This document shows positions 20,261 through 61,452 of a stretch of 64,000 bases of DNA, piece after piece. The translations under genes and the position numbers were made by a program. The DNA comes from a virus, in IMG/VR virus record IMGVR_UViG_3300023174_005299, positions 1 through 64,000 of that record. One strand, 5' to 3'. The notes beneath the pieces were generated by a model. The model was not told the DNA's origin. It saw nothing but the letters and a program-made list of their open reading frames with translations, and searched no databases. How positions within the stretch are numbered: the first letter of the stretch is position 1; each line of letters opens with the position of its first letter.

Positions 20261-20281
20261 GTTTGTAATATAGTTGTTAAT

Positions 20282-20372
20282 GCTCACTTCAGACTACAAA
20301 GGTAGCGAGTCTTTTTCGTCTAGGCAGCAGCCGCCCACACACTCGGTAACGAGTACCGGTCCTAAGGTGTGT
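20282..20372 (-). ncRNA. candidate structured RNA upstream of ahcY
   Basis: GC-rich; ACACAC/GTGTGT stem enclosing CGGTA/TACCG, GGGC/GCCT hairpin, AGAC/GTCT stem, CTCGCT/AGTGAG pseudoknot potential. Confidence 0.45.
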
Positions 20373-20619
20373 TCTTTTTAAGTGTGTAATACACTTTAAT
20401 TTGATTTATCATTTCTTTGAGCACGGTGTCAGATTCTGACGCACGTCTAATTTCACCCCAAAGTTTATCTTCTCGAATCTGGTCAACAAGACTTTTGGCC
20501 CGAGTATTCTGTCCAATCATTATGCGTTCAGACTTACCAAGTTCTCTAGCGTATACTGTGTCACCACCGTCGGGACTTTCGTAGATGTAAGTAGCACCTG
20601 GTTTAAGTTTACCCATCAA
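20362..20619 (-). CDS. hypothetical phage protein
   Basis: YIYESPDGGDTVYARE motif common in T4-like phage small proteins. Confidence 0.7.
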   Translation of the reverse strand: MMGKLKPGATYIYESPDGGDTVYARELGKSERIMIGQNTRAKSLVDQIREDKLWGEIRRASESDTVLKEMINQIKVYYTLKKNTP

Positions 20620-21713
20620 TTTGTTAGGTAGTCCACAGCATAGTCTTGATCCACAAGACTTTTATGACACTTTTGTTCACACTCTACCCAAGCACAGCTT
20701 TGATCATCGAAGCTGTTGAATAAGTGCGACCAAGCATCATCATTTAACACATCCTCTAGACTGCGATGGTGTAGATTTATACTGTCCTTGAATTTGTTTT
20801 GAAAATTATCTTTGAAATGAATGGTTTTGCGATCATTGCCCATCTCTCGATAAGTGTAGCTGGTCCAACTGCAGGGATGCAATAACCCATCAGCACTGAC
20901 ATAGATGGCACGATTTCCAATTTCACACAATGGTGTGATAAATGTGTTGTGTTTGTTTTTGACCTGCTCAAATCTCTGCTGTGTTTCAGCCATGAATTGT
21001 TGATTCAACTGTTGCCGTCCTGACAAGTTGATCAACCGACGTTCGTATCTATGACTTTTGCTGATCCATTCTGCTCTAGGTTCAAGCTCATCGTGGTCGC
21101 CATTGTATCGCTCGCCATACTTGCTGCCAAACTTGGTGCTCAATGTCAACTGCAACCCATCACATCCAATGGATCTAGCCTGTTGTTCAATGTTGGCAAG
21201 ATGATCTTGATTGAATTGAAAAACAATTGTGGCCCAGTAAACAAAGGCCTTGCTGTGTTGGCACATGATATTCATGCCGGACATGATGCTGTCCCAGTCG
21301 CTGTTGACTCTGTATAAATTGTTGCTGGCTTGATCATAGCCATCTACACTGAAATTCACAGTGTCATACTCGTTGCTGATTTTTGCAAAGTCGTGCCACC
21401 AAGAGTCCTTTTTGTAACTGCCATTGGTGATGGTGTACAAGTGTATGCGATCATTGTGTGTTTTGATGTAATCAACAATGTCTAGATATTGACTGGCATA
21501 GATGGGGTCACCAATGTCACCGCACATAGTAATGCGTTGCACTTCGTTTTTCAACAGATCTGGACTCAGCACCTTTTTAAAGAAATTCAAATCAAGTTCT
21601 TTGTTTAATTTAAAAACAGGCTCTTCGTCATTTCTAGGACATCGTGGGCACTTCAGGGTGCATTTACCACTTACTTCAAAGTGCCAATGATATAACTGCC
21701 AGGGATATTTCAT
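20616..21713 (-). CDS. radical SAM protein with SPASM/twitch-like C-terminus
   Basis: CTLKCPRC, GDIGDP, TNG, FSVDG, C...DGLLHPC...C..C. Confidence 0.9.
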   Translation of the reverse strand: MKYPWQLYHWHFEVSGKCTLKCPRCPRNDEEPVFKLNKELDLNFFKKVLSPDLLKNEVQRITMCGDIGDPIYASQYLDIVDYIKTHNDRIHLYTITNGSYKKDSWWHDFAKISNEYDTVNFSVDGYDQASNNLYRVNSDWDSIMSGMNIMCQHSKAFVYWATIVFQFNQDHLANIEQQARSIGCDGLQLTLSTKFGSKYGERYNGDHDELEPRAEWISKSHRYERRLINLSGRQQLNQQFMAETQQRFEQVKNKHNTFITPLCEIGNRAIYVSADGLLHPCSWTSYTYREMGNDRKTIHFKDNFQNKFKDSINLHHRSLEDVLNDDAWSHLFNSFDDQSCAWVECEQKCHKSLVDQDYAVDYLTN

Positions 21714-22330
21714 TTTTCTAATCTAATGTGTTTTAGCAAGTGCTGTTGATCACCCAATGCAGTTCTCACTGGTGCCACCAAGTCTTCGGGCACCATGTAA
21801 TTTTGTCCAGCATACCAGGCATCAATCTCTGAGTGCGGCACTGTGCCGTTGTGTCGATTGTATCTAAGATTGGTTTTGCATAGACCGGGTTGTATGTAAG
21901 TGAGTCCAATCTCGGGAGGTAGTTCACGCTGTATGCCTTGGCAGAAAGTTTCAAGTCCAGTTTTGGACACTGTGTAGGGAATTTTACCCGGCCATACATA
22001 GTCGGTGGAGGTGCTACCAATCACAACGATCTTGCCCCAGTTGGGAGGCCGTTGAGCAAGATAGAATTTTACCAAGTGCATGTTGGCAATCAAATTCACT
22101 TGTATGTTGTATTGCCAGTCATCGTCGGGCATGTCAACAAATGGTTGGTTTCCACTGCGGTCAGCCCCGGCACACAACACAAGTGCATCAAAGTCATTTA
22201 ACAATGCCAAGAAAGGTTTGGATAGATCTAGTTCACTGCGAGGTAGTGCAACTACATCATGGTCTTTTTGTAAATCTTTATTAATTGCTTGTCCGATACC
22301 ACTCGAACCACCGGTCAAAAATACTCGCAA
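21710..22330 (-). CDS. short-chain dehydrogenase/reductase
   Basis: TGGSSGIG, YTVSK (YxxxK), PGLCKT; TTG start. Confidence 0.88.
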   Translation of the reverse strand: MRVFLTGGSSGIGQAINKDLQKDHDVVALPRSELDLSKPFLALLNDFDALVLCAGADRSGNQPFVDMPDDDWQYNIQVNLIANMHLVKFYLAQRPPNWGKIVVIGSTSTDYVWPGKIPYTVSKTGLETFCQGIQRELPPEIGLTYIQPGLCKTNLRYNRHNGTVPHSEIDAWYAGQNYMVPEDLVAPVRTALGDQQHLLKHIRLEK

Positions 22331-22420
22331 AATGTGTCCTTAAAATTTTAGTGTACTATCAAGTAGACTATAATTTATTATACAACCATTGTACAGCCAA
22401 TGTCAAGCTATTTTAAAGCT

Positions 22421-24724
22421 TTATTGCCAGACGCCGCCTTTGTTTTTGTACCAGATTTTAGCCCATCGATTGGCATCTTCAACAAGATGTTGATCAAACC
22501 TACTTGATGCTGCCACCTGTGCCTGTTCCCACAATAATAAATTTGAAGGTTTCAATTGGTTCTCAGTGATGCTTTCATTGGGCACACAGTTGCGTACTTG
22601 TCCGCCATTCTTACCTTTTTTAGTGCCCTCGGCGTGCTTGCCTGGCCAACAACGTGTGTAACCATTGGCGTCTTTTTGACCTTTTTTGATCTCATTGATA
22701 TTGCCATGTGTTTGACACATGCCACAGTCTTCACACACCATTTCCATCTCTGTGCTTTCATTGTGTTTCTTCTTACCTGCACAGTGAGCACGTTGGCTAA
22801 ACCCTTTAGGGTGAGAGCAGTTGATTGAATTTTTATACTTTTGGCTCCAGGCTTCGTTTAGTTCTAATTCACTGTGCGGGAAGGCAATATATGTGTCACC
22901 GTTGACATCGCCTGGACGAATTAAAAATACCCCTGCATCATCATCACCAGATTCATCTTGACCAATTTCCCAACCCATTGAAGCCAATGTTCGTTGTGCT
23001 TTGGCCATTTGTTGCTCTGTGCCCAACCACCATTGTGAGGCCAACTGCTTTAGAATATGTTCTTCATCGGGCTCACGGTCATCACCACCAGGTGGTGCAA
23101 ATTCACTTAATTCTTTTTTTTTAGCAATGGCAGCTTCTTCTACAGCCTTTTTAAACCCCTTGCCTGGTACCCAACCTGCAATGGGCTTGCACTTGCAACT
23201 ATCTCCGGGACATTTGCAGTTTTTCATACCACATTGCATACAGCGTTTTTCTGTGCTTTCGGCTACGCCCTGTTGTGGATCGTTGGGGTTGGTGGTCAAT
23301 ACAAACTCTTTGCCTTTGTTGAACAGTTTAGCCTGCATTGTTAATGCGGCTTTGTTTGCGGCAGCCTTGCCACGGTACGAGTAGGGATTGCCTTGTTTGT
23401 CTCTAATGAGTTTGCCATTGAGACGAATATACCAAGTCTGGGTGTCACGATCTAAGTCATGTCGCTCATCATCTCTTGCGCCACGTGCAAACCCTGTGGT
23501 ATTGGCATGATATTTTTGGCCTGCTTCGCCTAGACCTTGCTCCATTTGTCCCAATGTTTGTTCAACTTGGCGTACCCACCCGCTGACATCACTGCTTCCA
23601 ATTTCTTCTACGTCGCCCACAAAGTCGGCAACTTCATCAATGGCATTTAAAACTTTTTCAGGACCGTACTTGCTCAATAAGTCAACTCGTTGGCTCATGA
23701 TGCGACGTGTGATAGCACCGGCCACTGGACTGTGTTCTTCACCTTCTGCCACACCTTGTTCTTTATCAGTGTCAATCAACGTAAAGTTTTGCATACGCAT
23801 TTTTGCTTGTTGTTTTAATTGTTGCCATTCTTGTTGCTTTGCGGCTTTTTGTTCTGGAGACATAGCGGCATACTCTCTACCACTAATGCGAACCTCGACC
23901 TTTTCTGGGTTGGAGCCTTCTGCCACGCTTTCTTTTTTAGCAGCCAGCTCAGCTCTTTTCTTCATTAATAATGCCAAGCCTGAATTAGGAGCAGGTTCTT
24001 TATTACCATCCTCTGCCACACCTTGCTGGCTATACTTGTCAATCGCTTGGCCAAGCCATAACCTATAAAAACCAGGGCGTTCATTATATGCGCTAGTGCC
24101 GAGTACAGTTATTAATGCGGCTATAGCATCATTTTCTGTTGGGCCTTTCATTTTGGCTGCTATTTTATCAACAAGTGGATCAAATCGTGGTGTATCTTCT
24201 GCCATACCTTGTGTCTGACTCAATGCTTGTTTCTGACGCAATGCATCACGAGCCATTACTGTGTTTTCACGCGAGTTGTCGGGACCAAACCCATGTAATC
24301 TATTGCCGGCAGCAACGCCTGCACCTGTGGCCTTGCTGACATCTTTTGGTGTTGAGGAATAGCCACTTGTTGGGTTTGCACTCCACGCATCCATCTTATC
24401 GTATGCTCTGTTTTGAACTGCACCCAGTGCCGCTCTACCTGCCGGAGTGTTTCCAATTTCACTTAATTGTTCTTCCGCTATACCTTGTTGATCTTTTTGT
24501 AACCATCCGTAAACACTTACTAGGTCACTGGGAAAGTCTGCGTCGTAGTTGAACACAGACATGGCTCTTTTATTACCCAGTGCTGTTACTGCCAAGGGCC
24601 AGGCCGCATCTAGTATTTGATTTTCATCATGGATGTTGGGATTGGCATCAAACACTTGTTTTGCCAGGTCTTCGGCATAGTTGCCGCCACTGTTTGTGTT
24701 TTCAAATAGTTGATTGAGATTCAT
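22421..24724 (-). CDS. modular polyvalent protein with repeated QGVAE-type linkers and Cys-rich micro-modules; probable virion-internal protein
   Basis: 767 aa; linkers QGIAE, QGMAE, QGVAE x3, ESVAE, QGLGE; Cys-rich modules near the C-terminus. Confidence 0.7.
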   Translation of the reverse strand: MNLNQLFENTNSGGNYAEDLAKQVFDANPNIHDENQILDAAWPLAVTALGNKRAMSVFNYDADFPSDLVSVYGWLQKDQQGIAEEQLSEIGNTPAGRAALGAVQNRAYDKMDAWSANPTSGYSSTPKDVSKATGAGVAAGNRLHGFGPDNSRENTVMARDALRQKQALSQTQGMAEDTPRFDPLVDKIAAKMKGPTENDAIAALITVLGTSAYNERPGFYRLWLGQAIDKYSQQGVAEDGNKEPAPNSGLALLMKKRAELAAKKESVAEGSNPEKVEVRISGREYAAMSPEQKAAKQQEWQQLKQQAKMRMQNFTLIDTDKEQGVAEGEEHSPVAGAITRRIMSQRVDLLSKYGPEKVLNAIDEVADFVGDVEEIGSSDVSGWVRQVEQTLGQMEQGLGEAGQKYHANTTGFARGARDDERHDLDRDTQTWYIRLNGKLIRDKQGNPYSYRGKAAANKAALTMQAKLFNKGKEFVLTTNPNDPQQGVAESTEKRCMQCGMKNCKCPGDSCKCKPIAGWVPGKGFKKAVEEAAIAKKKELSEFAPPGGDDREPDEEHILKQLASQWWLGTEQQMAKAQRTLASMGWEIGQDESGDDDAGVFLIRPGDVNGDTYIAFPHSELELNEAWSQKYKNSINCSHPKGFSQRAHCAGKKKHNESTEMEMVCEDCGMCQTHGNINEIKKGQKDANGYTRCWPGKHAEGTKKGKNGGQVRNCVPNESITENQLKPSNLLLWEQAQVAASSRFDQHLVEDANRWAKIWYKNKGGVWQ
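23258..24487 (-). repeat. dispersed 15-bp repeats (consensus CAAGGTGTGGCRGAA) encoding QGVAE-like linkers
   Basis: Copies at 24473-24487, 24197-24211, 24011-24025, 23918-23932, 23744-23758, 23525-23539, 23258-23272; further copies at 29139-29153 and 29523-29537. Confidence 0.75.
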
Positions 24725-25275
24725 TATTTTTCTTCCAAGTAGTCCGCATTGCCTTCGGCCATTTTGCGTCGATTACAGTACATTTCACAAGCCATGACTG
24801 CATGTTCTAAATTTTTAAATTTTGCTGAGTGTGGTCGGTTTTTAATAGATACACGGAACCCATCATCTTCGTTGCCGTGAATCTTGATTTCGTGGCCATC
24901 ATCTGTGGTGATTGTTTTCACAGCAGAACCAAGCATGTCATCCTGCATTTGTTTATTTGATTGTAGTCCAGTGTCATGATTGATTGCACTGGCAACATCC
25001 TGCAAATAGTCGCCCAAGCGTTTTTTGACATTGCTCACAACATCTTCACTGGCCATGGATTCTTCCACACTTTCACCGCCTACAAAATATTTCTTGGCAG
25101 GATGTGCAGGGTCTGTTTTATCTTTTAAAACAGAAATAGAATTTGGTTTAAACAATGCTGGCATCTGCGGCACAGATTTTTGTTGTTTGTTTAGTCCATG
25201 CTTGACATTGGTGGGGGTGACATCACCTTCATTAATGGCATCAATGCGAGAAAGAATTTTTCTAATGTCACTCAT
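24724..25275 (-). CDS. hypothetical protein (probable head-associated)
   Basis: 183-aa ORF coupled to both neighbours; MSDIRKILSRIDAINE leader ending in xxE. Confidence 0.65.
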   Translation of the reverse strand: MSDIRKILSRIDAINEGDVTPTNVKHGLNKQQKSVPQMPALFKPNSISVLKDKTDPAHPAKKYFVGGESVEESMASEDVVSNVKKRLGDYLQDVASAINHDTGLQSNKQMQDDMLGSAVKTITTDDGHEIKIHGNEDDGFRVSIKNRPHSAKFKNLEHAVMACEMYCNRRKMAEGNADYLEEK

Positions 25276-25712
25276 GCTCGATTATCTTTCAGGAAACTAC
25301 GCAACATCCAACCATGCTTGCCATGTGCATCAAGACGCTCGGCCACAAAGTTGGCAATGCCTTGATTGTTTTCTTGCTCAGCTGATGCAAAGCATTGATT
25401 TAACAAATCAATCATGGTGCTGTTGTTGTCAAGTAACTCTTCGATCATCAAACGAGCACGTGGAATCTTTGTTTGTCCTTGGATAACTGATAACTCTAAA
25501 AAACGCTCAAAACTGCCGGGACTGTACTCGTCTAATGTGCGAATGTATTCAGCAATTTTATCAACAACACCATACACCTCACTGTAAAAATCCCCAAAGA
25601 ATTCATGCATTTGAGCAAAGTCTGGACCTTCCACATTCCAGTGAAAGTTTTGTGCTTTGATACTCAGGGCATATTGGGTAGCAAGTAGGGTCTTTAAATC
25701 ATCAGCGAGCAT
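25272..25712 (-). CDS. dps: Dps / DNA-binding ferritin-like protein
   Basis: NFHWNVEGPDFAQMHEFF, DKIAEYIR, KHGWML. Confidence 0.93.
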   Translation of the reverse strand: MLADDLKTLLATQYALSIKAQNFHWNVEGPDFAQMHEFFGDFYSEVYGVVDKIAEYIRTLDEYSPGSFERFLELSVIQGQTKIPRARLMIEELLDNNSTMIDLLNQCFASAEQENNQGIANFVAERLDAHGKHGWMLRSFLKDNRA

Positions 25713-25866
25713 TCTTTTTTCCTTTAGGCCATGCATTTACATAGCTATTTTTATATTTAGTTTTATTGGGTAATCCTGGTCGCGTAATTACCTCGCCCAT
25801 GGGCATGGACACTGTGGCAATTCCACCGCTGACTGTGTTTTCTCTGACAAATTCTCGTGCTCGCAT
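25702..25866 (-). CDS. small protein (54 aa) with MRAREFVRE leader; absent from the ORF track
   Basis: Hand translation MRAREFVRENTVSGGIATVSMPMGEVITRPGLPNKTKYKNSYVNAWPKGKKNAR; TAATG overlap with the upstream gene. Confidence 0.7.
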   Translation of the reverse strand: MRAREFVRENTVSGGIATVSMPMGEVITRPGLPNKTKYKNSYVNAWPKGKKNAR

Positions 25867-28076: not shown

Positions 28077-29612
28077 TTAGTGGAACATTAAGTAACTGTC
28101 GATCACATCCTTGCGATTGGCTGCACGATCTCCGGCACCGGGCTGTACAATAACATTCCACTTGGGTGCAGGACCCACCGGTGTTGCCAGCATTTGATCG
28201 TAGGTGATAATTGACTTGGGATCAACCTGATATTGCTGTGCAAGACGTTGTTTAAATGTGTCAAGTGCTTCAGGACTGGCAAACTGTGTGCGGCCCTTGG
28301 CGTCTTTGATCAAACTGTTGCCGTTACGTGCAATCAAATCAAAAAACATGTTCTTGGGAACTGTAACACCTTGCTTGACTGTGGCTCCAGGATTTTGTTG
28401 TTTATAGAATTCCACTTTCTTTTCTTCGCCACGTTTACTACCTGATGAGAAGTTCATTGTAAAGTTTGCAGGTGACGCACCTGTGGCAACATCGCCCATC
28501 TTGGTGTAGGCATAGAATTGTACATCAGGATTGGATTTAGCAACATCATAAGCAAGATCCAAGTATTCCTTACTGAAGAAGTCACCAGCATCGTGCCAAC
28601 GCACAACTAGTTGAATACCAGCTTTGTCTGCTTTGGCTTTAATTGTTTTAATCTCTTGATTGACTCTGGCACTGTAACCTTCGGGATCATTCACCAAGAA
28701 ATTTAGTGCTTGCGCCGCTGACATAGAGCTAGCAGGGAACATGACATAGCCACCCTTACGTGCATAGCAGAATAATTGGCAAGCACCAGCACCAGGACAT
28801 GTAGTAATTTCCACAAAGTCACCGGTGTCTTCATCTACAACAATGCCACTCAGCGCCGGCAATGTCAAGTCATAAATGATTTCACCTTCAGTCTTGCTCT
28901 TTTCCATTTTGGCATTGGTACCAAGTATAGCTCGTGGGCGTGTAGTAATTTGACTAGCTAAGTCGTCTAAGTCCCACTCGGTGTTGTTATCGTCTTTGGT
29001 GATGGCTTTGATGTTGCTGCCGTGAATAATTGGGGCAAACTTATCACGCTTGGTCTTTGTACCGGTCTTGATACGATTAGCATAGCCCTGCAATTCATCA
29101 CGTGGTATTGTGCGTTGTGGTGCGTTGAGTTTGATTGCTTCCGCCACACCTTGCTCTTTTTTAACAACAAACGATATTTGTTTGTTTCCAGTGTTGGGAT
29201 CTGTGTATACGCTCTTGAACACTCTACCGCCATGTTGTTTGGCATGAGCAAATGCTTCTTGTTTGTTGTCAAATCTGTTAGTAGGTGGCTTGATCATTGG
29301 GCTGGCTTCTTCGCCTATGCCACGAACAGCACGATCTAATCGCCATCTTTGTTGCGGTCCCAGCAAATGATTGTCTTCGGGTTTGGGACTATGGCCACCG
29401 TAACGACTTGGGTCAGCATGATGTCTTATACCTGTGGCAGTTTTTTCCACCGACCCTAGGTTAACTGGGGAATTATCTGGCGGAGAATTTGGTCCACGAC
29501 GACCACTGTTGGCGTTGCCAGCTTCTTCAACACCTTGATCTTGAATGTTCAATACCTTGACTGGAAATCCACCCAGGGTTGTTTCTTTTAATATAAAATC
29601 GTGAGCTCTCAT
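28077..29612 (-). CDS. modular protein with C-terminal Gp88-like (radical-SAM-related) domain; MRAHDFILKE leader
   Basis: CPGAGACQLFCYA, VRWHDAGDF, FYAYTK; QGVEE and QGVAE linkers. Confidence 0.65.
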   Translation of the reverse strand: MRAHDFILKETTLGGFPVKVLNIQDQGVEEAGNANSGRRGPNSPPDNSPVNLGSVEKTATGIRHHADPSRYGGHSPKPEDNHLLGPQQRWRLDRAVRGIGEEASPMIKPPTNRFDNKQEAFAHAKQHGGRVFKSVYTDPNTGNKQISFVVKKEQGVAEAIKLNAPQRTIPRDELQGYANRIKTGTKTKRDKFAPIIHGSNIKAITKDDNNTEWDLDDLASQITTRPRAILGTNAKMEKSKTEGEIIYDLTLPALSGIVVDEDTGDFVEITTCPGAGACQLFCYARKGGYVMFPASSMSAAQALNFLVNDPEGYSARVNQEIKTIKAKADKAGIQLVVRWHDAGDFFSKEYLDLAYDVAKSNPDVQFYAYTKMGDVATGASPANFTMNFSSGSKRGEEKKVEFYKQQNPGATVKQGVTVPKNMFFDLIARNGNSLIKDAKGRTQFASPEALDTFKQRLAQQYQVDPKSIITYDQMLATPVGPAPKWNVIVQPGAGDRAANRKDVIDSYLMFH

Positions 29613-32600
29613 TTTGCTTTGATCTCTTTCAGTTGGTTTTGTAGTTTGGTCATCAATAACGGTGGGCTGCCATTATCATCAATTGCCCAACCCAATTTCT
29701 TGGCTTGTCGCTGTGTTTCGCCAGGCTTGATATCAACTGTTAGGCCTGACACATAACGTGGATCGTGCGCCAGTTTGCTGTCAACAGGAATAAAACCGGT
29801 GGCTTCTTTTAACTGAACTGTTTTGGCACGGGCCGCCAGTTTTTCTGGCAAGGTAAATTCTGAATCAGGAGCAACACACACTGTGTCGACGCATTGATTG
29901 AGAACTTCGGTGGGCAAATCAATATAACTCAATGCACCACCATAGGCTTCTTGGAATGGCAAAGCAATGCCCACCAGGGAGTTGGTGAACGTTGGATTCT
30001 GTCCCACTTCACCAGGGCGATTCCCCCTCCAAAGACGAGTCTGACCTGATGCAACTGCCGGTAATTGACTTTGAATTTTGTTTGCTTGAGCAACTAGACT
30101 GCGAATTCGCGGTGTGTTTGCATAGTCATGCCCGTCATGAGTTATTTTGCCTTCTTGCTGTTCGTTTGATCTGACATACACTTTTTGCGGCAGTTGTTTG
30201 TTGTCGTTATTATATTTTGCCGGCTCACTGGATTTTTCTTTGTCAAAATACTTTCGCATCTCTGCTGAACTTGTCTTGGATTTTCTTTCACCGGGGGCCT
30301 TGGGCTTTGTTAAAAATCCAATTACACCTTCATCTGCAATATCTTCCGCTATTGGTTTTATTCTACTCAATTCGTACATGACTTTGTTGCCGGTTTCTGC
30401 ACGGAACGCACGGAAGCCCAAAGCCCTTGCATAACGCTGAACCAAACTGTCATACAGTCTTGCCCTGGTCATTGCTTTCCTTTGATCCTCATCTGGTTTA
30501 ACTTCTTTTGAGGCTGAGAAATATATTTTATTGGGCTTGTATTTTCCTTTTGCACCAGGCACCCTGTCAGAAATAAATGTTTGAACAGCACTTAGCACAG
30601 TGGCAAATACACGCTGTTGATCACCCTCACCTGTCTTTTCTTGACTGTTGTTTCTAAAGAACTCAACACTCCAGGCTTCCTCTTTTGTCTCTTGTTTAAA
30701 TCCCTTGTTAAACATAATGCTTAGAAAAGTTCCGTCATCTAATCGTGCTATTGCGTCTACATCACCGTGGTCACCCTTTTCCCACCGAAGTATTTTATAG
30801 GGTTGGTCCAATGATTCATTTATAGATTCATCAAATCGCCAATTACCAGTAAAAAATGGATCATTAATGACTATCTCGCCATCACTGCCAAGCATAAAAT
30901 TACCGCCATGCAAATCAAGTCTGTATCCCTTTCGGTCAGCAAGCTTATCCAGTTGCTCAATGGTGTTGGCCAACAACAGAAATTGTTGCCGCCCACCAAC
31001 CAATGACATTAGTTTTCCTGTTTCTTGATCTCCGTGGCGTCTTAGGAATTTATTAACTCCACGGTCTGCACCATTGGACTGTATCAAACTTGCCAGTTGC
31101 CCTAGCCTGGAACCAACCAGTATCAACCCAGACTTGCTAAGATCAAACATTCTTTCACAGTTGATCTGCAGATATCGTTTACCTTCAAAGTCAAAAGGTT
31201 CCCAGCCGCCAAACTGTGGCAAAAATGGATTGTTAGGCTTTGCCATGCAGTAATCGGCAAAGTCTTTGAAACTTTGTTGTCCTTGGGATAACTTACCGCC
31301 TGGACCGTAACCGAATATTTTGAGAACAGTTCCGTCGGGTGCTAGATAGGCATCTTGGTCCTGACCTTTGCCCAAAAATGCGTAGCCTTTTTTTACAAGA
31401 ATTGGTTGAATGTTTTTGCTGATCTGAGCTTCGTCTATGCTTTGTTTATCTTCGTCAGTGGTTGATTCGGGCACCGCTTGCCCTTGGCGACGACGCAGAT
31501 CATCTTTCATGCGCTGTAATAATTCTTCGCGAGCACCGGCAGCACCCATGTGCTTGATGGTCTGCGATGCACGCCCTATGGTTTGTATGTCCTTGACTGT
31601 TTGTCCAACACCACTGGTGGTGGCGCAACCAGGTGTGCCAGCTATGCATGCTGCCGCGGCCACGGCTGCTAGTTGGTCTTTGACAGATTCTTCCAATGGA
31701 ATATCTTTAAAAAATTCTGGGTACTGATCCACCCAATGACGCATGATACGGCCTGCCATGGCATTGGCCTCATCTTCGTGGGGTGATCCTGTTTCGCCTG
31801 CATCTACAGGCATGGTGGCCAGTTCATCCTGACGAGCATGCGTGAGTTCGTGTGCTAGAGTACGCAGTATGTCCAAAGGATGTCGGTTACTTACTGCCAG
31901 GGTCACTGAATATGTGTCAGTGTCAAACTGACCAAACGTGCCGTGTCTACGTGTCCACTCAGGATCTTTTTTTATTATAATTTTTGGGGCTTGTTCAATA
32001 CCAAGATATTCCATACAACTGTTTATGAATGGTTGCAGTATTTCTTTAATGTCACGGGGTTGTTGAGCTTCGGCTATGCTTTCGCTGACACCACCGTCAT
32101 CGCCACTACCACCGTCAAGCATGTTCAATGGACCAAAGCTGCCATACACAAATTTGGGTTTTTTGCGTTCTTTGAGACTTAGACTTTGGCTTTTGGCTGC
32201 TTGGCGTGCGGCTGTTAATCGATCCAATGTGCCGTTGTTTCTCAGCACTTTGAATGCTAGATTCTCGGGACTGAATTCACCAGTGTCTGCCAAACCAGCT
32301 TTGCGCATGTCTTTGATTTTGTCAGCAACTTGATCCATGCTGTCAAGGTCGCCACTTGCAATAGCCGAGTCAACTCGGTGTCCTAGATCTTCATACTTGC
32401 TCTTGACACTGATGTCATTGATGCTGGGTTGACTACGTTTGGGTACGCTCAACCATTTGTTGTCGCGAATTGAATATATGCCTTGACTGACATGCGGCTG
32501 TTTGCTGTCTTGCACATACAACTCAATGTCATAAGGGCCAATTTTAAAATTGTACTCATCATTGTATTGATACTTCTTGGCATTGAACAGTTCTTGATAT

Positions 32601-32872
32601 ACAGGATCATCGGGAATGTCTACAACTAGGTGTAGGTCAATGTCGCTGTGTGGGGTATATGTGTAGGCAGCATTGCTGCCGCTCAGTGTTATATCTTTGA
32701 GTGCCAGGTCATCTACACCCAGAAATTCTCGAAAATCATCTGCAATTTTCAGCAGATGATCTCGAACATCCAGGCGTAAATGTTGGTTAGACCCCCATAG
32801 TCGAGGGTTTAACTCTTGGTTAAATTTAATTGCGTCACTGAGACGAAATGATTCTAGTTCGTTGATGTCCAT
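29609..32872 (-). CDS. large polyvalent protein: Pol-beta-type nucleotidyltransferase, HExxH metallopeptidase, protein-kinase-like domain and further modules
   Basis: GSNAAY...SDIDLH; LAHELTHARQ...EDEAN; LGKGQ...VLKI...DLHGGNFM...INDP. Confidence 0.8.
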   Translation of the reverse strand: MDINELESFRLSDAIKFNQELNPRLWGSNQHLRLDVRDHLLKIADDFREFLGVDDLALKDITLSGSNAAYTYTPHSDIDLHLVVDIPDDPVYQELFNAKKYQYNDEYNFKIGPYDIELYVQDSKQPHVSQGIYSIRDNKWLSVPKRSQPSINDISVKSKYEDLGHRVDSAIASGDLDSMDQVADKIKDMRKAGLADTGEFSPENLAFKVLRNNGTLDRLTAARQAAKSQSLSLKERKKPKFVYGSFGPLNMLDGGSGDDGGVSESIAEAQQPRDIKEILQPFINSCMEYLGIEQAPKIIIKKDPEWTRRHGTFGQFDTDTYSVTLAVSNRHPLDILRTLAHELTHARQDELATMPVDAGETGSPHEDEANAMAGRIMRHWVDQYPEFFKDIPLEESVKDQLAAVAAAACIAGTPGCATTSGVGQTVKDIQTIGRASQTIKHMGAAGAREELLQRMKDDLRRRQGQAVPESTTDEDKQSIDEAQISKNIQPILVKKGYAFLGKGQDQDAYLAPDGTVLKIFGYGPGGKLSQGQQSFKDFADYCMAKPNNPFLPQFGGWEPFDFEGKRYLQINCERMFDLSKSGLILVGSRLGQLASLIQSNGADRGVNKFLRRHGDQETGKLMSLVGGRQQFLLLANTIEQLDKLADRKGYRLDLHGGNFMLGSDGEIVINDPFFTGNWRFDESINESLDQPYKILRWEKGDHGDVDAIARLDDGTFLSIMFNKGFKQETKEEAWSVEFFRNNSQEKTGEGDQQRVFATVLSAVQTFISDRVPGAKGKYKPNKIYFSASKEVKPDEDQRKAMTRARLYDSLVQRYARALGFRAFRAETGNKVMYELSRIKPIAEDIADEGVIGFLTKPKAPGERKSKTSSAEMRKYFDKEKSSEPAKYNNDNKQLPQKVYVRSNEQQEGKITHDGHDYANTPRIRSLVAQANKIQSQLPAVASGQTRLWRGNRPGEVGQNPTFTNSLVGIALPFQEAYGGALSYIDLPTEVLNQCVDTVCVAPDSEFTLPEKLAARAKTVQLKEATGFIPVDSKLAHDPRYVSGLTVDIKPGETQRQAKKLGWAIDDNGSPPLLMTKLQNQLKEIKAK

Positions 32873-33945: not shown

Positions 33946-34980
33946 TTATTGGCTGGTTTCATCGATGTAATCGTTGTTCTCGCCAATGTCAATCTCACGG
34001 CCCCGGGCCACTGGGCGTCGCCCTTGTTTTTGTCTAAAATCTTCAAGTCTAGCCAAGGCCTGCAATTTGCTCTGCATTGCGCCGGCCTTGTACAATACAT
34101 GTTCAGCACCGCGATAATTGCCAGATTTTAACATCCCGATTATTTCTGCAAATTGTTTGGCCAGACTGGATTTCAATGTATCTTCAGTCCAAGTGCCAAG
34201 TCCGCCTGTGGGACGAATTAATTCGCCTTGATCAGGATCATTGACTAGTGTAGCCTCATCAACTGGTGATTGTTTCCTGACAATGTCGGCCATGGCCTTT
34301 TTGTTGAGATTTTTAGTTTCTGCTGGCGCTTGTTTGCTGTCAGTGCCCATGCCGTTGTCCATGAGCTTGACTGTGACGTCTGTGAGTCTTGGATTATTGG
34401 CTGTGGCTGGGTACATGATGTTAACCAACTGTGCTTTGGTAGCATCATCATAGTTGGCCCACTTGGCACGAATTTCACTGCCTGATGTCATGCCATTGAA
34501 TTCATGCACAGGCAGGTACTTCAAATAACCGTGTTGACTCATTGGGGCAAGGCCATTGCGCTTGTAGTACTGCAACCAATCACTCACAGGTTGCCCTTTT
34601 CTAGCACCGCGAGTGACCAAGGGCAACTGCCCAGTTTTGGGATCTACTTCAGCCGGGAATGGTCCTTCGGGATCGGGTCCGTTTTTGGCATTCTTTTGAC
34701 TCTTGACAAATATTAACTGTGTATCATTGTCGGGATAGTGGCTGGTGATTTCGTCGGGTTTAAACGGACTCTTAACTTGTATGAATCTATGTGGTGGCAC
34801 ACCGGCCAGTTGTGCTAGTTTTTTCTTGATAGCAAAAGGAAACGGTCGTTCACTGCGATCATCAGTGGCTGCAATATAAACATCAGCTGAAGGAAATGCT
34901 TCGACTGCTTTGTCATACAAAGCCTTGTGTCCTGCATGGAACGGGTGAAAACCACCGGGAATTATAACCAATTTTTTCAT
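33946..34980 (-). CDS. HIGH-family cytidyltransferase-like protein with C-terminal extension
   Basis: PGGFHPFHAGH, SGSEIR. Confidence 0.8.
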   Translation of the reverse strand: MKKLVIIPGGFHPFHAGHKALYDKAVEAFPSADVYIAATDDRSERPFPFAIKKKLAQLAGVPPHRFIQVKSPFKPDEITSHYPDNDTQLIFVKSQKNAKNGPDPEGPFPAEVDPKTGQLPLVTRGARKGQPVSDWLQYYKRNGLAPMSQHGYLKYLPVHEFNGMTSGSEIRAKWANYDDATKAQLVNIMYPATANNPRLTDVTVKLMDNGMGTDSKQAPAETKNLNKKAMADIVRKQSPVDEATLVNDPDQGELIRPTGGLGTWTEDTLKSSLAKQFAEIIGMLKSGNYRGAEHVLYKAGAMQSKLQALARLEDFRQKQGRRPVARGREIDIGENNDYIDETSQ

Positions 34981-35969: not shown

Positions 35970-36689
35970 TTATTTAGTTAAGACTTGAATTGTTTTTCTA
36001 ATTAATCCTGGGGTAATTAATTCCAACATTTGAGATATTGCATCATTGTTGTGATCAAAATAGTAGTGACGTGCCACTAGATTATAGTGCCTTACACCAG
36101 CACTACTGAGCCAGGATTTGAAACTGGGACCTAGATTGATCCCTTGTTGACTTGTCAGGTACGCTGCCAAGGACTTTTTGGCTTCTTGAGAAATCAAACG
36201 TTCTTTAAAGTATGTTCGCCGAGTGTATTCACCAGTACCACGCACTGAATCAAAAGGTCTGTCAATTAACGCTTCGTGTACCACCTTGACATTGAAATCT
36301 TGAGCTGTTAGTTTGTCGACTTGTGTGATATCATTGGTGTAAACATAACACCAGTTTCTTGTGGTGGAAAATTTAAAATCTCCAGCTTGATTTTTGATCA
36401 AAGAATACAACCTGCACAATCTTTGTTCTCGATTAGCAAGAGTGAGTTCGTCATTTTGATAAGGTCTTGGAATCGCCCAAGACCCACCATAGTTGATATC
36501 CGGCTGCCAGCCCAGGCGTTTGGAAATAGTGTCAGGCGCAGTATCAACGTCATTGGAGAACAACCCACGCAACACACTGCATCTAGGTTCATTGATTGAA
36601 ATACTGTATTTGTATTTGTTAAAAAACAATCGATCTGTTGATTTTTTCTTATGCATCGGGATCAAGTTTTTCAAAAATAATGTAGCCAT
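35970..36689 (-). CDS. hypothetical protein
   Basis: 239-aa ORF; start could be 36656. Confidence 0.6.
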   Translation of the reverse strand: MATLFLKNLIPMHKKKSTDRLFFNKYKYSISINEPRCSVLRGLFSNDVDTAPDTISKRLGWQPDINYGGSWAIPRPYQNDELTLANREQRLCRLYSLIKNQAGDFKFSTTRNWCYVYTNDITQVDKLTAQDFNVKVVHEALIDRPFDSVRGTGEYTRRTYFKERLISQEAKKSLAAYLTSQQGINLGPSFKSWLSSAGVRHYNLVARHYYFDHNNDAISQMLELITPGLIRKTIQVLTK

Positions 36690-38934
36690 CTTTATTAACC
36701 TTGGGCAATTGAGGATCTAACACCGGCACAATATCAAACACCAATTGGTCATTGTCTAATCCAAGATTGATTGTGCAATCTTGCAGTCTATCAAACAAGA
36801 TTTTCTTTGACAGCGGAACTCGAATCAGTTCATCAATTTTTCTATTCAAGGGTCTTGCACCCATCTTGCTGTCATATCCTTTGTCGGCCAAATGTTCAAT
36901 CACAGACTCTGTGAGGTTTAGTTTTATGTTCTTGTCCACTAAACTTTGCTTGAGCACATCCACAAATTTTATTACAATCTTTTTAATTGCCAACTGATCA
37001 AGCTTTTTAAATTTGCAAATCAAATCAATTCGATTGCGCATTTCTGGTTTAAAAAAGTCCTTGACTGCGGCATCTTCACTGCCGGTTTTTTCCAGGGACT
37101 GTGAAAAACCAATGTTGTTGTTTTCGTTGTCTCTGGCACCAAGATTTGATGTCAGGATGATGATGGTGTTTTTACAATCCACAGTTTTGCCACTGCTGGA
37201 TGTGATCCTACCTTCATCCAGCATCTGCAACAAGATGTTTGAAACATCGGGGTGAGCTTTTTCAATTTCATCAAATAATAAAATAGCATAGGGGTTTTTG
37301 CTGAGATCTGAAATCAGTTTACCACCACTTAAATTGCCATCTTCAAATCCCACGTAGCCAGGAGGAGCACCAATCAAAGTACTCACTGTGTGTTTTTCCT
37401 GATACTCGCTCATGTCATAGCGCAACAATGGCATGCTTAGATTCTCTGCCAACAGTTTGGCCAACTCAGTTTTACCAGTTCCGGTGGGTCCCAGGAACAA
37501 GAAACTGCTCATTGGCTTTTGTGTGTTGCCCAAGCCTGCATAGTTGACATACACACGTTCCAGCACATTGTTTACCACTTCGTCTTGTCCATAGAGTCGT
37601 TGCTTGATATTGCTTTCAAGTTCTATGATTTTTGTGCTATCTTTGTTTTCTAGTTTGTCCATGGGCACACCGGCAACTCGACTCAACTGCTGTAAAATCA
37701 TGCCGCGATTCACAGTGACATTGCCCAGGTCTTTGACACGTTCCCGGCTACAGGCAGCATCCAGCAAGTCAATGCTCTTGTCAGGATTCTTTTTGTCATG
37801 AATATATCGTGCACTGAGTTCCACAGCCGCTGTGATTGCATCAGTGTCAATGAGCACATTGTGGAATTGCTCAAGTCTTGGACTCAATCCAATAAGAATC
37901 TGTTCTGTGGTATTTGCATCGGGCTCGTCTACTGCCAGTCTATGAAAGCGGCGCATCAAGGCACGATCCTTCTCAAAGCTTTCGTAGTATTCTTCCCAAG
38001 TGGTTGATGCCACAACTTTGAGGTTGCCTTTGGTGATGGCAGGTTTGATCATGTTGGCAAAGTCCAAGGAACTTGACCCCGAGCTACCAGCACCTTTCAT
38101 GGTGTGTGCTTCGTCGATGAATAACACACACTTCTTGTTGCTTTCGAGAGCCTGAATAACCATTTTTAATTTTTCTTCAAACTCACCGCGGTACTTGCTG
38201 CCTGCCAACAATGAACCAATCTCCAGGCTCCATACTTCATGATCCTTGAGAAAGTTTGGTACTTTGCCATCAGTGATTGACTTGGCAAGGCCTTCAATCA
38301 AGGCTGTTTTGCCCACGCCAGGGTCGCCTACCAACAACACGTTGGCCTTGAAGCGACGAGCTAATGCAGTGATCATTTCTTGAATATCAGTTTCTCTACC
38401 AATCACTGGCTCAAGACGATCTTCTCGTGCCAACTGTGTAAGGTTGACACAGTACTCTTCAAGAATCTCTGTGGCTTGTTGATGGTTGATTTTTGCATCA
38501 TTGTGATTGTAGTTTTGTTCCCAAAACTTTGCAAATTCTTGTTTGTTGACACCGTATTTGAGCAAGAAATAATGTGCATGACTATTGCTTTCGCTCATGA
38601 TGCTGAGATACAAGTCAAGTGTTGTGATGGTTCTGCGTCCGGTAAACAACACCTGAGTCAATGCTCGATTAAAAACTCTTTCCAGCGCATTTGTTTTCTT
38701 TGTGTTCCTGCCCGCTGCCTTGTTTTCGATGCTGGTCAGACTGTCAAGATACGCACCAAGTTCCTTGCCCATCAGTTCAATGTCAATGCCAAATTTGATC
38801 AACACTCGTTGAAACGGAGTGTGTAGTAGTAAACTGGCCAACAAATGTTCAGTGGTCACATATTCATGTGATCGCTCTCTGGCAATCTTTATAGCGTTCT
38901 CAATGATTTGTTCAATTTCTGGATTGTTTTGCAT
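36649..38934 (-). CDS. clpA: ClpA-like AAA+ chaperone
   Basis: N-domain HEYVTTEHLL, GDPGVGKT, LFIDEAH, GPTGTGKTE, GAPPGYVG, DEIEKAHPD, MGARPL; no ClpB middle domain. Confidence 0.93.
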   Translation of the reverse strand: MQNNPEIEQIIENAIKIARERSHEYVTTEHLLASLLLHTPFQRVLIKFGIDIELMGKELGAYLDSLTSIENKAAGRNTKKTNALERVFNRALTQVLFTGRRTITTLDLYLSIMSESNSHAHYFLLKYGVNKQEFAKFWEQNYNHNDAKINHQQATEILEEYCVNLTQLAREDRLEPVIGRETDIQEMITALARRFKANVLLVGDPGVGKTALIEGLAKSITDGKVPNFLKDHEVWSLEIGSLLAGSKYRGEFEEKLKMVIQALESNKKCVLFIDEAHTMKGAGSSGSSSLDFANMIKPAITKGNLKVVASTTWEEYYESFEKDRALMRRFHRLAVDEPDANTTEQILIGLSPRLEQFHNVLIDTDAITAAVELSARYIHDKKNPDKSIDLLDAACSRERVKDLGNVTVNRGMILQQLSRVAGVPMDKLENKDSTKIIELESNIKQRLYGQDEVVNNVLERVYVNYAGLGNTQKPMSSFLFLGPTGTGKTELAKLLAENLSMPLLRYDMSEYQEKHTVSTLIGAPPGYVGFEDGNLSGGKLISDLSKNPYAILLFDEIEKAHPDVSNILLQMLDEGRITSSSGKTVDCKNTIIILTSNLGARDNENNNIGFSQSLEKTGSEDAAVKDFFKPEMRNRIDLICKFKKLDQLAIKKIVIKFVDVLKQSLVDKNIKLNLTESVIEHLADKGYDSKMGARPLNRKIDELIRVPLSKKILFDRLQDCTINLGLDNDQLVFDIVPVLDPQLPKVNKDGYIIFEKLDPDA

Positions 38935-38989
38935 TTTGCTCCTTGTGCTTGTCATGTATAGTAACATGATTAATTGAATGCCACAATAT

Positions 38990-39769
38990 TTATTGGCTAT
39001 TCCAGTGCCGAATTTGTTCTATTTGTTCAGGTGTTAGGTCAGTGGGTAATTTGGCATTGAGTTCTACCATGAGGTCGCCACGTTGGCTGGTTCCTTTTCT
39101 AGGAAATCCATGCCCTCTAATACGCAAAGTGGCACCAGGTTGTGTTTTGGGAGGCACACTAACCACCACTTGATTTTTGTGAATAGTATCAACTGTGATT
39201 TCTTGTCCCAGTATCAATGCCCAAATGCTGATATCAAACTTTCTAATAGAGTTGGCACCTTCTCGACGCCATGTCAAATCTGGATGTATCCTAAAAGTTA
39301 TCACAAGGTCCATGCCATTGGGGCCAACCCTGGCATATCTAACAGTGTCACCATCTTCAATGCCAGGGGGTATTTGTATTTCAACATTGATTTGTCCTTG
39401 ATGGGTGCCCACAGCAATCAGTCTGGGTCCACCGGACGCAACATCTTCCATGTGAATCCACAAATTTAATCTAGCCGATCGATGTTGTGCATTTGGGTCC
39501 ATGCCGGGCCTGGCATTGAACATGTCAAATATGCTGTCAAAGCTAAATGGGTTGCCGCCGCCCATGTTGACTCTCATGCCTGGATTGTCGTACTGCTGTC
39601 GTTTGCCCGGATCACTCAGTGTGTCATATGCTATTTGTATTTCTTGAAACTTTTGTGTATCGCCACCTTTGTCGGGATGATGTTGACTGGCCAGCCGGCG
39701 GTAAGCACGTTTAATTTCGTCGGCAGTGGCTGTGCGGGTTACTCCCAATGTGGCATAGTGATCTGTCAT
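38990..39769 (-). CDS. DnaJ/CbpA-type co-chaperone (no zinc finger)
   Basis: J-domain with HPD, C-terminal LRIRGHG...RGDL. Confidence 0.92.
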   Translation of the reverse strand: MTDHYATLGVTRTATADEIKRAYRRLASQHHPDKGGDTQKFQEIQIAYDTLSDPGKRQQYDNPGMRVNMGGGNPFSFDSIFDMFNARPGMDPNAQHRSARLNLWIHMEDVASGGPRLIAVGTHQGQINVEIQIPPGIEDGDTVRYARVGPNGMDLVITFRIHPDLTWRREGANSIRKFDISIWALILGQEITVDTIHKNQVVVSVPPKTQPGATLRIRGHGFPRKGTSQRGDLMVELNAKLPTDLTPEQIEQIRHWNSQ

Positions 39770-49423: not shown

Positions 49424-49461
49424 TGAATGTAATCCATAATATGGGTAGTAAATACCCATTC

Positions 49462-49469
49462 TATTTATA
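49462..49469 (-). promoter_or_regulatory. T4-type late promoter TATAAATA upstream of the binding protein/transporter/racemase block
   Basis: Exact TATAAATA followed by an ATGGGTA/TACCCAT inverted repeat (49441-49459). Confidence 0.45.
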
Positions 49470-61444: not shown

Positions 61445-61452
61445 TATTTATA
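61445..61452 (-). promoter_or_regulatory. T4-type late promoter TATAAATA
   Basis: Exact TATAAATA 5 nt upstream of the ATG at 61439. Confidence 0.55.

Follow-up and report, generated by a model that had tools for sequence, protein, structure and literature searches.

A modular phage protein with recurring hydrophobic-x-Glu joints, a candidate capsid-loaded polyprotein of T4-related jumbo phages

A polyvalent modular protein in an uncultured jumbo phage

The window analyzed here comprises 64,000 nucleotides of viral DNA (positions 1 to 64,000 of IMG/VR record IMGVR_UViG_3300023174_005299) and carries an uninterrupted open reading frame (ORF) of 1087 amino acids (aa), here named P0001, as seen from the ORF list and the translation. 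An original prediction made from the letters of this DNA alone had placed an ORF of that length at the same position; both were borne out, and the strand (minus) is newly added. The source record of the window is viral, 72.5 kb long and of an estimated completeness of about 21%. The DNA polymerase in the window is of the T4 type and shows 43-50% identity to those of Sinorhizobium phage Phosso and Agrobacterium phage Atu_ph07 and likewise to those of 350-kb jumbo phages of Yersinia, Erwinia, Serratia and Vibrio. The virus is an uncultured T4-related jumbo phage.

P0001 is a polyvalent modular protein with independently folding modules in one chain (Table 1). The original prediction had named a nucleotidyltransferase, a zincin peptidase and a kinase. 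These calls and their approximate limits hold, the first by sequence and the other two by a confident model and fold matches, but the list was incomplete, as three further modules follow the kinase. All motifs that had been quoted were found, namely G65-S66 and D77-I-D79 in the nucleotidyltransferase, H341-E-L-T-H345 in the peptidase, and G501-K-G503, V516-L-K518, D653-L-H-G-G-N658 and I669-N-D-P672 in the kinase. The quoted catalytic motifs are more than chance occurrences, because they are conserved in relatives (63 family members and 56 kinase-module sequences).

Structures were predicted for residues 240 to 700 and for M5b, and M1, M4 and M6 were judged from sequence. The model of residues 240 to 700 was folded from a 63-row alignment, in which the placement of columns was verified by script, and reached a mean predicted local distance difference test score (pLDDT) of 78, with confident blocks at residues 271 to 396 and 478 to 683. 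Stretches of low confidence (pLDDT below 50) were located at residues 240 to 270, 397 to 443, 468 to 477 and 684 to 700, i.e., at the joint positions. Checked for a single integrated fold, this model showed separate confident domains with low-confidence linkers at the joints.

Table 1. Modules of P0001 and leader-bearing or related genes next to it (res, residues of P0001)
Feature	Position in window	Strand	Remarks
Whole ORF P0001	29609..32872	minus	1087 aa, polyvalent modular protein
N-terminal MDINE (res 1-5)	32858..32872	minus	I-N-E motif, possible short leader
M1, Pol-beta-type nucleotidyltransferase (res 6-235)	32168..32857	minus	end L233-K-E235
Gly-rich linker (res 236-268)	32069..32167	minus	V-S-E264, I-A-E268; pLDDT <50 at 240-270
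M2, zincin-like metallopeptidase (res 269-395)	31688..32068	minus	H341ExxH345 and E366; end L393-E-E395
M2b (res 396-469)	31466..31687	minus	signal-/lipoprotein-signal-like start, then helices; end V467-P-E469
Short acidic linker (res 470-481)	31430..31465	minus	end I479-D-E481
M3, truncated protein kinase (res 482-682)	30827..31429	minus	K518, E573, D653, N658, D671; then F-D-E682, I-N-E686
M4, DUF6934-like (res 687-843)	30344..30814	minus	end I841-A-E843
M5a, Lys-rich low-complexity stretch (res 844-905)	30158..30343	minus	common to few proteins
M5b, small ADP-ribosyltransferase-like (res 906-1023)	29804..30157	minus	R946, R949, T963-N-S965, E1005; end L1021-K-E1023
M6, 64-residue module (res 1024-1087)	29612..29803	minus	start ATGFIPV
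Cassette gene, 511 aa	28077..29612	minus	leader MRAHDFILKE; GP88 domain, Pfam E=1.3e-32
Cassette gene, 293 aa	27194..28075	minus	leader MRAQEFLRE; modules found inside P0040, P0100, P0038, P0025
Cassette gene, 277 aa	26364..27197	minus	leader MRAQEFVTE; modules found inside P0025, P0115, P0038, others
54-aa ORF	25702..25866	minus	leader MRAREFVRE
767-aa gene	22421..24724	minus	start MNLNQLFE; modules common to relatives' polyvalent proteins

Folds and conserved residues of the modules

In a Pfam search, M1 matched NTP_transf_2 (PF01909) with an E value of 0.0014 and 19.4 bits, below the curated cut-off of 21, and its match to phrog_36119 had an E value of 1.1e-43. Among 36 relatives scanned, 25 matched NTP_transf_2 at E≤0.01 and eight reached at least 21.0 bits. 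An alignment of 63 family members revealed nine invariant residues in M1 and M2, i.e., G65, S66, D77, D79, E117, H341, E342, H345 and E366. Those in M1 comprise the hG[GS] motif (G65-S66), the [DE]x[DE] motif (D77-x-D79) and the third carboxylate (E117) of Pol-beta-type enzymes, which supports the assignment of M1 as a putative Pol-beta-type nucleotidyltransferase. As a stand-alone gene, M1 is found in cyanophages, Maribacter phages and Lak phages.

M2 was modeled with a pLDDT mostly above 90 over residues 271 to 396. A VIA-align search of the model of residues 240 to 700 against 48,161 chains listed 50 matches, of which 29 were kinases aligned to model residues ~247 to 441 and 21 were zincin-type metallohydrolases aligned to ~33 to 145. 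For M2 (residues 272 to 384), AQ_1354/YbeY (Z 9.2, root-mean-square deviation [rmsd] 2.9, 102 residues aligned), Wss1 (Z 9.0, rmsd 3.4, 99 aligned) and entry 6mdx (Z 8.7, rmsd 3.0, 98 aligned) were matched, along with minigluzincins and PprI; according to the tool itself, Z scores near 8 may reflect a common arrangement. No Pfam peptidase family reached its cut-off in the 36 relatives of M2 that were scanned. Matches below threshold were DUF6782 (24 relatives), Peptidase_M78 (10), MPTase-PolyVal (6) and WLM (5). The assignment of M2 as a zincin-like metallopeptidase, predicted from the fold match and the sequence, is nevertheless firm, because H341-E-x-x-H345 and E366 are invariant. The zincin fold matches stem from VIA-align, and kinases fill the Foldseek matches listed from the Protein Data Bank (PDB).

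M3 yielded 51 PDB matches at E≤0.001 in Foldseek, and those listed are protein kinases (MEK1, PknB, WNK and others) or APH(2''). In VIA-align, Mps1 was the best match (Z 9.3) and PknE reached Z 8.2; these alignments stop at the DFG region of the targets, e.g., covering residues 3 to 159 of PknB. Seven residues are invariant in 56 kinase-module sequences (G503, K518, E573, D653, H655, N658 and D671), and M3 contains the Gly-rich loop (G501-K-G503), the beta-3 lysine (K518), the helix-C glutamate (E573), the D653...N658 pair and the metal-binding aspartate (D671) of protein kinases. The module ends 11 residues past the DFG-equivalent D671, so that the C-terminal subdomain is missing. Sequence and model thus support M3 being a protein kinase truncated after the DFG-equivalent. 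M3 furthermore matched phrog_15752, annotated as protein kinase (E=3e-5), and the BFVD matches of the model of residues 240 to 700 included "protein kinase" entries of T7-like phages (e.g., E=2.2e-8) and "IrrE N-terminal-like" proteins. Sequence searches of solved structures with the single protein returned only a ribosomal protein at E=0.096, and the profile searches A1, A3, A2 and A8 gave unrelated chains with best E values of 0.12, 4.7, 1.7 and 0.56, respectively.

M4 matched two PHROGs of unknown function, phrog_16075 (E=9.6e-11) and phrog_6387 (E=1.8e-8). DUF6934 was matched by 12 of 36 relatives, four of them above the cut-off, which supports the designation of M4 as a probable DUF6934-like module. 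For M6, an Atlas search gave no match.

The model of M5b had a pLDDT of 94 and a predicted template modeling score (pTM) of 0.85. The top Foldseek matches were Tpt1, poly(ADP-ribose) polymerases (PARPs) and ADP-ribosyltransferase (ART) toxins, with a best E value of 0.026 (Tpt1) and none at E≤0.001. In VIA-align, the best Z score was 4.7 (rmsd 3.3, 77 aligned), below the safe level of the tool, and at least 30 of the 50 matches listed were named ARTs, PARPs or Tpt1, including Tpt1/KptA and Arr. Weak as these scores are, nearly all listed matches have the ART fold. Conserved in 43 sequences are R946 and R949 (strand 944 to 950), T963-N-S965 (where a strand ends and a helix comes next) and E1005 (where a strand begins), and we infer from the model that these residues follow the order of an R-S-E-type site. 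In view of the weak fold scores, M5b is described as a small ADP-ribosyltransferase-like module. Its family (P0122 to P0251) comprises 131 clusters among 1.84 billion representatives, 116 of them at E≤1e-10, and occurs alone (100 to 240 aa) as well as within proteins of up to 6044 aa. Such proteins carry ART-PolyVal, LPD38, InPase or Sno-type helicase domains elsewhere in the chain. The domain itself had no Pfam match in the 18 members scanned, and it would define a new small ART-like domain family without a Pfam model. An Atlas search with M5b returned unnamed viral clusters and a weak lead to DUF4765/"EspN family" (score 0.92, few shared features).

Joints, leaders and exchange of modules

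The modules had been described in the original prediction as bounded by xxE sites, and this was confirmed by counting. In P0001, six domain cores were delimited by the analyst from homology and model confidence (i.e., not blind). Of 17 [LIVMF]-x-E motifs, 12 were located in the 239 of 1087 residues outside these cores. Shuffling of the whole protein gave an expectation of 3.7 motifs outside the cores, and none of 2000 shuffles reached 12; when each compartment was shuffled separately, 5.1 were expected, and 2 of 2000 shuffles reached 12. The cores were depleted of the motif (5 versus 12.5 expected).

Comparison with relatives revealed the same pattern. Ahead of M6, a glutamate was present within two residues in all 84 distinct contexts, whichever module precedes. 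In 79 of the 84 contexts, the P3 residue, numbered from the bond behind this glutamate (P1), was V (50 contexts), L (16), I (10) or one of M, F and A, and P1' was A or S in 79 as well; for a given E, the background frequency of a hydrophobic residue at P3 is 0.23. M2 and M2b end in joints of the same pattern, and M4 is flanked by such joints. Prohead proteases of T4, phiKZ and SPN3US cleave C terminally to Glu after a short motif (PMC9026906; PMC10052503). T4 gp21, for example, cuts Alt at ITE-6 and LTE-619 (PMC5694885), and SPN3US gp245 cleaves after A-x-E (PMC10052503). Judged by its residues, the joint motif of P0001 is of the kind published for T4-type prohead proteases.

A related element was found at the start of neighboring genes. 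The 511-aa gene, the start of which overlaps the stop of P0001 (ATGA), and the 293-aa and 277-aa genes all begin with short leaders (Table 1); in codon-shuffled windows, 0.04 leader-type starts were obtained versus the three observed directly downstream. In 37 related loci (741 kb), 48 leaders of the MRAxEF(L/V)xE type were counted, each of them encoded on the same strand as the polyvalent gene and mostly located after it, and five related genomes contained 16 (reversed control pattern, 0). Furthermore, 53 of 55 stand-alone kinases start with M[KR]xxE[FIL][IL]xE and have a hydrophobic-x-E motif within the first 14 residues, and stand-alone zincins (~132 to 137 aa) bear a leader of their own. 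In the complete relative G001, the leader was also observed on genes of another locus, well away from the polyvalent gene (C1:263121-263515 and C1:54208). The capsid-targeting sequence of T4 is MKTYQEFIAE (PMC8442874); its residues 4 and 7 are the main determinants of targeting and residues 8 and 10 those of processing, and loading of various proteins by T4-like phages by means of the tag has been suggested in a review (PMC9026906). The leaders resemble the T4 tag and have the core EF(I/L)xE in common with it, as in MRAQEFLRE. P0001 itself starts with MDINE followed by LES, i.e., with an I-N-E motif, and Met1, E5 and L6 are invariant in the 63 family members.

In four relatives (P0034, P0039, P0011 and P0007), the counterpart of the 511-aa neighbor is fused in frame behind M6. 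These fused forms keep the leader as an internal joint of the MKIxxILKE/ILNE type, e.g., MKIANILKE or NLRESQDSNMKIANILKE directly ahead of ATLGGFP. Because the leader of the split gene survives as a joint in the fused forms, joints and leaders are considered to be the same element. Also, the acidic linker at residues 470 to 481 aligns with the MKIxELLxE leader of stand-alone kinases.

Of 8000 candidates scored, 1493 proteins of 597 to 1903 aa matched P0001 at E≤0.001. Modules were counted in the best 119 relatives, all from uncultured T4-related jumbo phages: M1 was present in 117, M2 in 118, M2b in 74, M3 in 6, M4 in 56 and M6 in 114. The position of M6 varies, as it stands before or after M4, and other modules are inserted in relatives, i.e., Amidoligase_2 (15 of 36 scanned), GP88, GNAT, cytidine deaminase, a zeta-toxin-like kinase and DUF5661. 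Some family members carry SLT, GH19 or LysM modules (GH19 together with LysM). Among stand-alone short proteins, 170 matched the kinase module and 163 the zincin module, the latter often fused to one other module. The fused architecture was absent among 50,697 phage records, from which close relatives may be missing and in which cultured phages carry single modules only. One of these modules was found in the cultured, KVP40-like Vibrio phage vB_ValM_R10Z, where a 306-aa protein has an M4-like module behind an NLTE joint followed by AFDRP (L044:431-1947) and the gene upstream starts with MIEFLTE. This two-module protein may represent the same leader-and-joint code in a tractable phage.

The closest complete relative, L001 (352 kb), carries an additional module that separates M2b from M3, and M5b is absent from it. 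Its DNA is 94-100% identical to that of P0001 over M3 and M4 (30344 to 31465), silent sites included, versus ~55-80% over M1 to M2b and M6. Since identity jumps and module content differs at the joints, this is where exchange happens, and the comparison points to a recent exchange of the M3-M4 two-module block between the lineages of P0001 and L001.

The joint at the end of M2 is followed by a distinctive segment. As the original prediction had stated, IPLEE (residues 391 to 395) is directly followed by SVKDQLAAVAAAACIAGTPGC (residues 396 to 416, with C409 and C416), behind which the chain continues with ATT; M2b thus starts directly behind the predicted cut at E395. Taken behind the end of M2 in relatives, 59 distinct contexts all show an upstream hydrophobic-x-E/D motif, a basic residue (K or R; K398 in P0001) and an uncharged hydrophobic run. 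A nearly invariant Cx6C form, AAAAC(I/V)AG(T/S/A)(P/S)GCATT, was found in 56 of them, and a Cys-less hydrophobic run with an A-x-A-like form in the other three. Inspection by eye showed that two distant relatives have L-S-G-C and that the most distant ones end in A-x-A-like words. The usual lipobox consensus is [LVI][ASTVI][GAS]C. The lipobox-like end that had been proposed for this stretch is conserved and sits at the predicted new N terminus, but the candidate boxes T-P-G-C416 and A-A-A-C409 of P0001 are off this consensus, and without a cut at E395 the segment stays inside the chain. The pattern of residues supports a function of the M2b segment at a new N terminus, and its near-invariance suggests a role more specific than that of a generic signal peptide.

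Alternatively, the AAAACIAGTPGCATT stretch might be a membrane-inserting or oligomerizing helix (e.g., part of an ejection channel) or a recognition site for a phage protein instead of an export signal. Its near-invariance (56 of 59) in proteins that are otherwise ~45-70% identical is unusual for signal peptides, its richness in small residues resembles packing helices, and T-P-G-C and A-A-A-C deviate from the usual lipobox. Against this, a few relatives have a canonical-looking L-S-G-C, the most distant ones show the ordinary signal-peptide pattern of Cys-less hydrophobic runs with A-x-A-like ends, and a basic residue always precedes the hydrophobic run. We consider this alternative, which concerns M2b only, a serious one, though less likely than not.

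The region around P0001 contains further genes on the same strand. Just upstream, the segment from 36649 to 39769 (minus) encodes a double AAA+ protein of 772 aa that is ClpA/ClpB-like and a DnaJ-like protein of 259 aa, i.e., phage chaperone/unfoldase genes adjoin the candidate cargo locus. Two genes upstream of P0001, at 33946 to 34980 (minus), a 344-aa protein without a Pfam or PHROGs match is encoded; its start, MKKLVIIPGGFHPFHAGH, resembles the HxGH motif of cytidylyltransferase-type nucleotidyltransferases. In other phages, zincin relatives are fused to PF01467 cytidylyltransferase-like domains. A ferritin/Dps-like gene (25272 to 25736, minus; Pfam Ferritin, E=3.4e-24) is situated between the 767-aa gene and the cassette genes with leaders. 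A cluster at 18980 to 22330 (minus) encodes an S-adenosylhomocysteine hydrolase, a radical SAM protein and a short-chain dehydrogenase, and a perfect sigma-70-like TTGACA-18-TATAAT site is located ahead of it at 22406 to 22377. In the window as a whole, neither sigma-70-like sites (41 versus 35.3 expected) nor terminator-like sites were enriched.

A predicted capsid-loaded polyprotein

The analysis shows that P0001 is modular, that three modules have predicted folds of recognizable classes, that catalytic residues are conserved, that a junction motif and a leader exist, and that fused and split forms interconvert. These observations would be best explained if P0001 were a capsid-loaded polyprotein that is cut by a head protease into effectors ejected with the DNA, and we assign this reading a probability of roughly 55%. 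The leader would act like the T4 capsid-targeting sequence and direct the protein into the prohead core, where a gp21-type prohead protease would cut after each junction glutamate and release about eight pieces. Retained in the head, the freed enzymes would be delivered into the host along with the DNA and would then modify its proteins or other targets, and the cut M2b fragment would expose its signal-like N terminus and go to the membrane. The original prediction had already proposed one precursor with cuttable xxE joints, and the comparison with relatives strongly supports this idea; its further proposal of delivered host-modifying or anti-defence enzymes is a prediction. A protease of the required type is encoded in most of the near-complete related genomes, as Peptidase_S77 (gp21-type) was matched above the Pfam cut-off in four of five related genomes that are 92-100% complete.

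Several observations weigh against this explanation. The 72.5-kb record of the window, at its completeness of ~21%, yielded no Peptidase_S77 match, nor did one of the five near-complete related genomes. The neighboring genes are not head genes but encode ClpA-like, DnaJ-like, ferritin-like, S-adenosylhomocysteine hydrolase and radical SAM proteins and a DNA polymerase. The T4 late-promoter word TATAAATA is not found near the locus (2 matches in the window versus 2.36 expected), and a sigma-70-like site matching 11 of 12 positions (40510 to 40482) upstream of the co-directional gene string could indicate early transcription. P0001's own start, MDINELES, is only partly similar to the MKTYQEFIAE leader. 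Five hydrophobic-x-E motifs persist inside the domain cores, and the limits of these cores, on which the motif statistics depend, were set by the analyst and not blind. The invariant zincin module beside the joints offers an alternative protease, and cleavage, packaging, ejection and enzyme activity of the family are predicted from sequence and models. The two TATAAATA words themselves (49462 to 49469 and 61445 to 61452, minus) lie a few bases upstream of the minus-strand ORF starts at 49459 and 61439 and may be T4-type late promoters of other genes.

The zincin might indeed be the protease in question, with P0001 being cut at its joints by its own M2 in the infected cell or after transfer and without a head protease. 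M2 is present with invariant HExxH...E in 118 of 119 relatives and stands directly ahead of the most conserved joint (LEE/LDE, then the signal-like peptide); among short proteins, the zincin is frequently joined to just one further module, and autoproteolysis of polyvalent proteins by zincin-like MPTases has been predicted (PMC5512222). Against this reading, the joint itself agrees in its P1 Glu, its hydrophobic P3 and its small P1' with the cleavage sites published for T4-type serine prohead proteases. Moreover, stand-alone kinases and cassette genes without a zincin carry the same leader and motif, stand-alone zincins with their own leader look like cargo, and the nearest folds of M2 (Wss1, 6mdx, IrrE/PprI-like proteins and minigluzincins) act on other proteins. 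To our knowledge, the motif of Glu at P1 and a hydrophobic residue at P3 is not a zincin specificity, which counts against self-processing as well. Overall, we regard self-processing as unlikely.

Processing might also be absent altogether, so that P0001 would be one long multi-enzyme chain in which motifs and joints are scars of fusion or recombination or flexible linkers. Clearly, the fused forms arose by joining of neighboring genes together with their starts, recombination at the joints is frequent, as seen in the identity to L001 of 94-100% over M3-M4 versus ~55-80% in the flanks, and some polyvalent proteins are transferred at full length (PMC5512222). Scars alone, however, would neither hold P3 hydrophobic and P1 Glu in 79 to 84 of 84 contexts nor deplete the motif inside domains. 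A near-invariant signal-like segment that always follows such a motif is sensible only at a free N terminus, and in many phages separate genes carry the conserved leader. An unprocessed chain therefore appears improbable to us.

A more far-reaching form of the capsid-loaded polyprotein can be envisaged, in which the T4 internal-protein system has been concatenated by joining leader-bearing effector genes in frame. The leader word would then serve as address, cut site and recombination joint at once, and M2b would be an injected pre-lipoprotein or secretory peptide that uses host export and settles in the envelope early in infection, for instance to prevent superinfection or to close the site of entry. 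In this complete form, the idea is speculative and has a low probability.

Polyvalent proteins (PMC5512222) and the T4 tag are already known. With at least two predicted domains of disparate activity in one phage polypeptide, P0001 qualifies as polyvalent. PMC5512222 describes unrelated enzymes in one phage polypeptide, with a Pol-beta nucleotidyltransferase, a zincin-like peptidase, a kinase without the C-terminal subdomain and an ART-like domain as in P0001; the kinases have a truncated form that lacks this subdomain, smaller cassette-like genes accompany the large gene, and processing and injection are predicted (PMC5512222). M5b, too, occurs in proteins with ART-PolyVal, LPD38 and InPase. 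Unlike in polyvalent proteins, no Pfam polyvalent model was listed for P0001 at E≤1, and among relatives all matches to such models were below threshold (MPTase-PolyVal in 6 of 36, best E 0.031; Kinase-PolyVal in 2 of 56, best E 7e-4). Moreover, PMC5512222, in the part available, places its nucleotidyltransferase domains mainly in conjugative elements of firmicutes, has a single mention of a prohead protease and none of signal peptides, and contains no description of regular hydrophobic-x-Glu joints, leader-derived linkers or an internal signal-like peptide, which are features of P0001.

The T4 proteins IPI, IPII, IPIII and Alt likewise have a short leader ending in hydrophobic-x-Glu, and EF(I/L)xE occurs both in MKTYQEFIAE and in MRAQEFLRE. 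T4 cargo is cut after Glu and includes an enzyme of the ADP-ribosyltransferase type, and its genes are variable and dispensable for assembly. In contrast to P0001, T4 cargo proteins have a single module and are cut once or twice, whereas the P0001 family, known from sequence alone, has up to about eight modules per chain, with the leader recurring as internal joints. In phiKZ-like giant phages (substrates of SPN3US gp245 and phiKZ gp175), many head-internal proteins are cut after Glu by a gp21-related protease and ejected (PMC10052503; PMC5694885). Their motif is A-x-E or S/A/G-x-E and long N-terminal propeptides are removed, whereas the joints of P0001 have V, L or I at P3, and the pieces between its predicted cuts are folded enzymes instead of discarded propeptides. 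M3 resembles kinases of the T7 gp0.7 type by its matches to phrog_15752 and to T7-like kinase entries of BFVD; unlike T7 gp0.7, an early gene product, M3 ends 11 residues past Asp671 and is either a polyprotein module or a leader-bearing protein of ~215 aa. In the literature, the supplements of PMC5512222 aside, we found neither leader-bearing cassettes chained into one polyprotein with protease-type joints nor this family's size, its internal signal-like peptide or its small ART-like domain.

If the capsid-loaded polyprotein is real, the enzymes injected by T4-related giant phages would by far exceed, in number and variety, those of T4 with its three internal proteins and Alt. Their modular code, built simply of leader, module and cut site, would be readable from sequence alone and would permit effectors to be swapped as cassettes. 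The nucleotidyltransferase, the peptidase, the kinase and the ART-like domain would then be candidates for early host take-over and counter-defence, and the leader would provide a natural multi-cargo packaging tag usable in engineered T4-type particles. KVP40-like Vibrio phages with an L-T-E joint before a homologous module are a bench-testable cultured lead.

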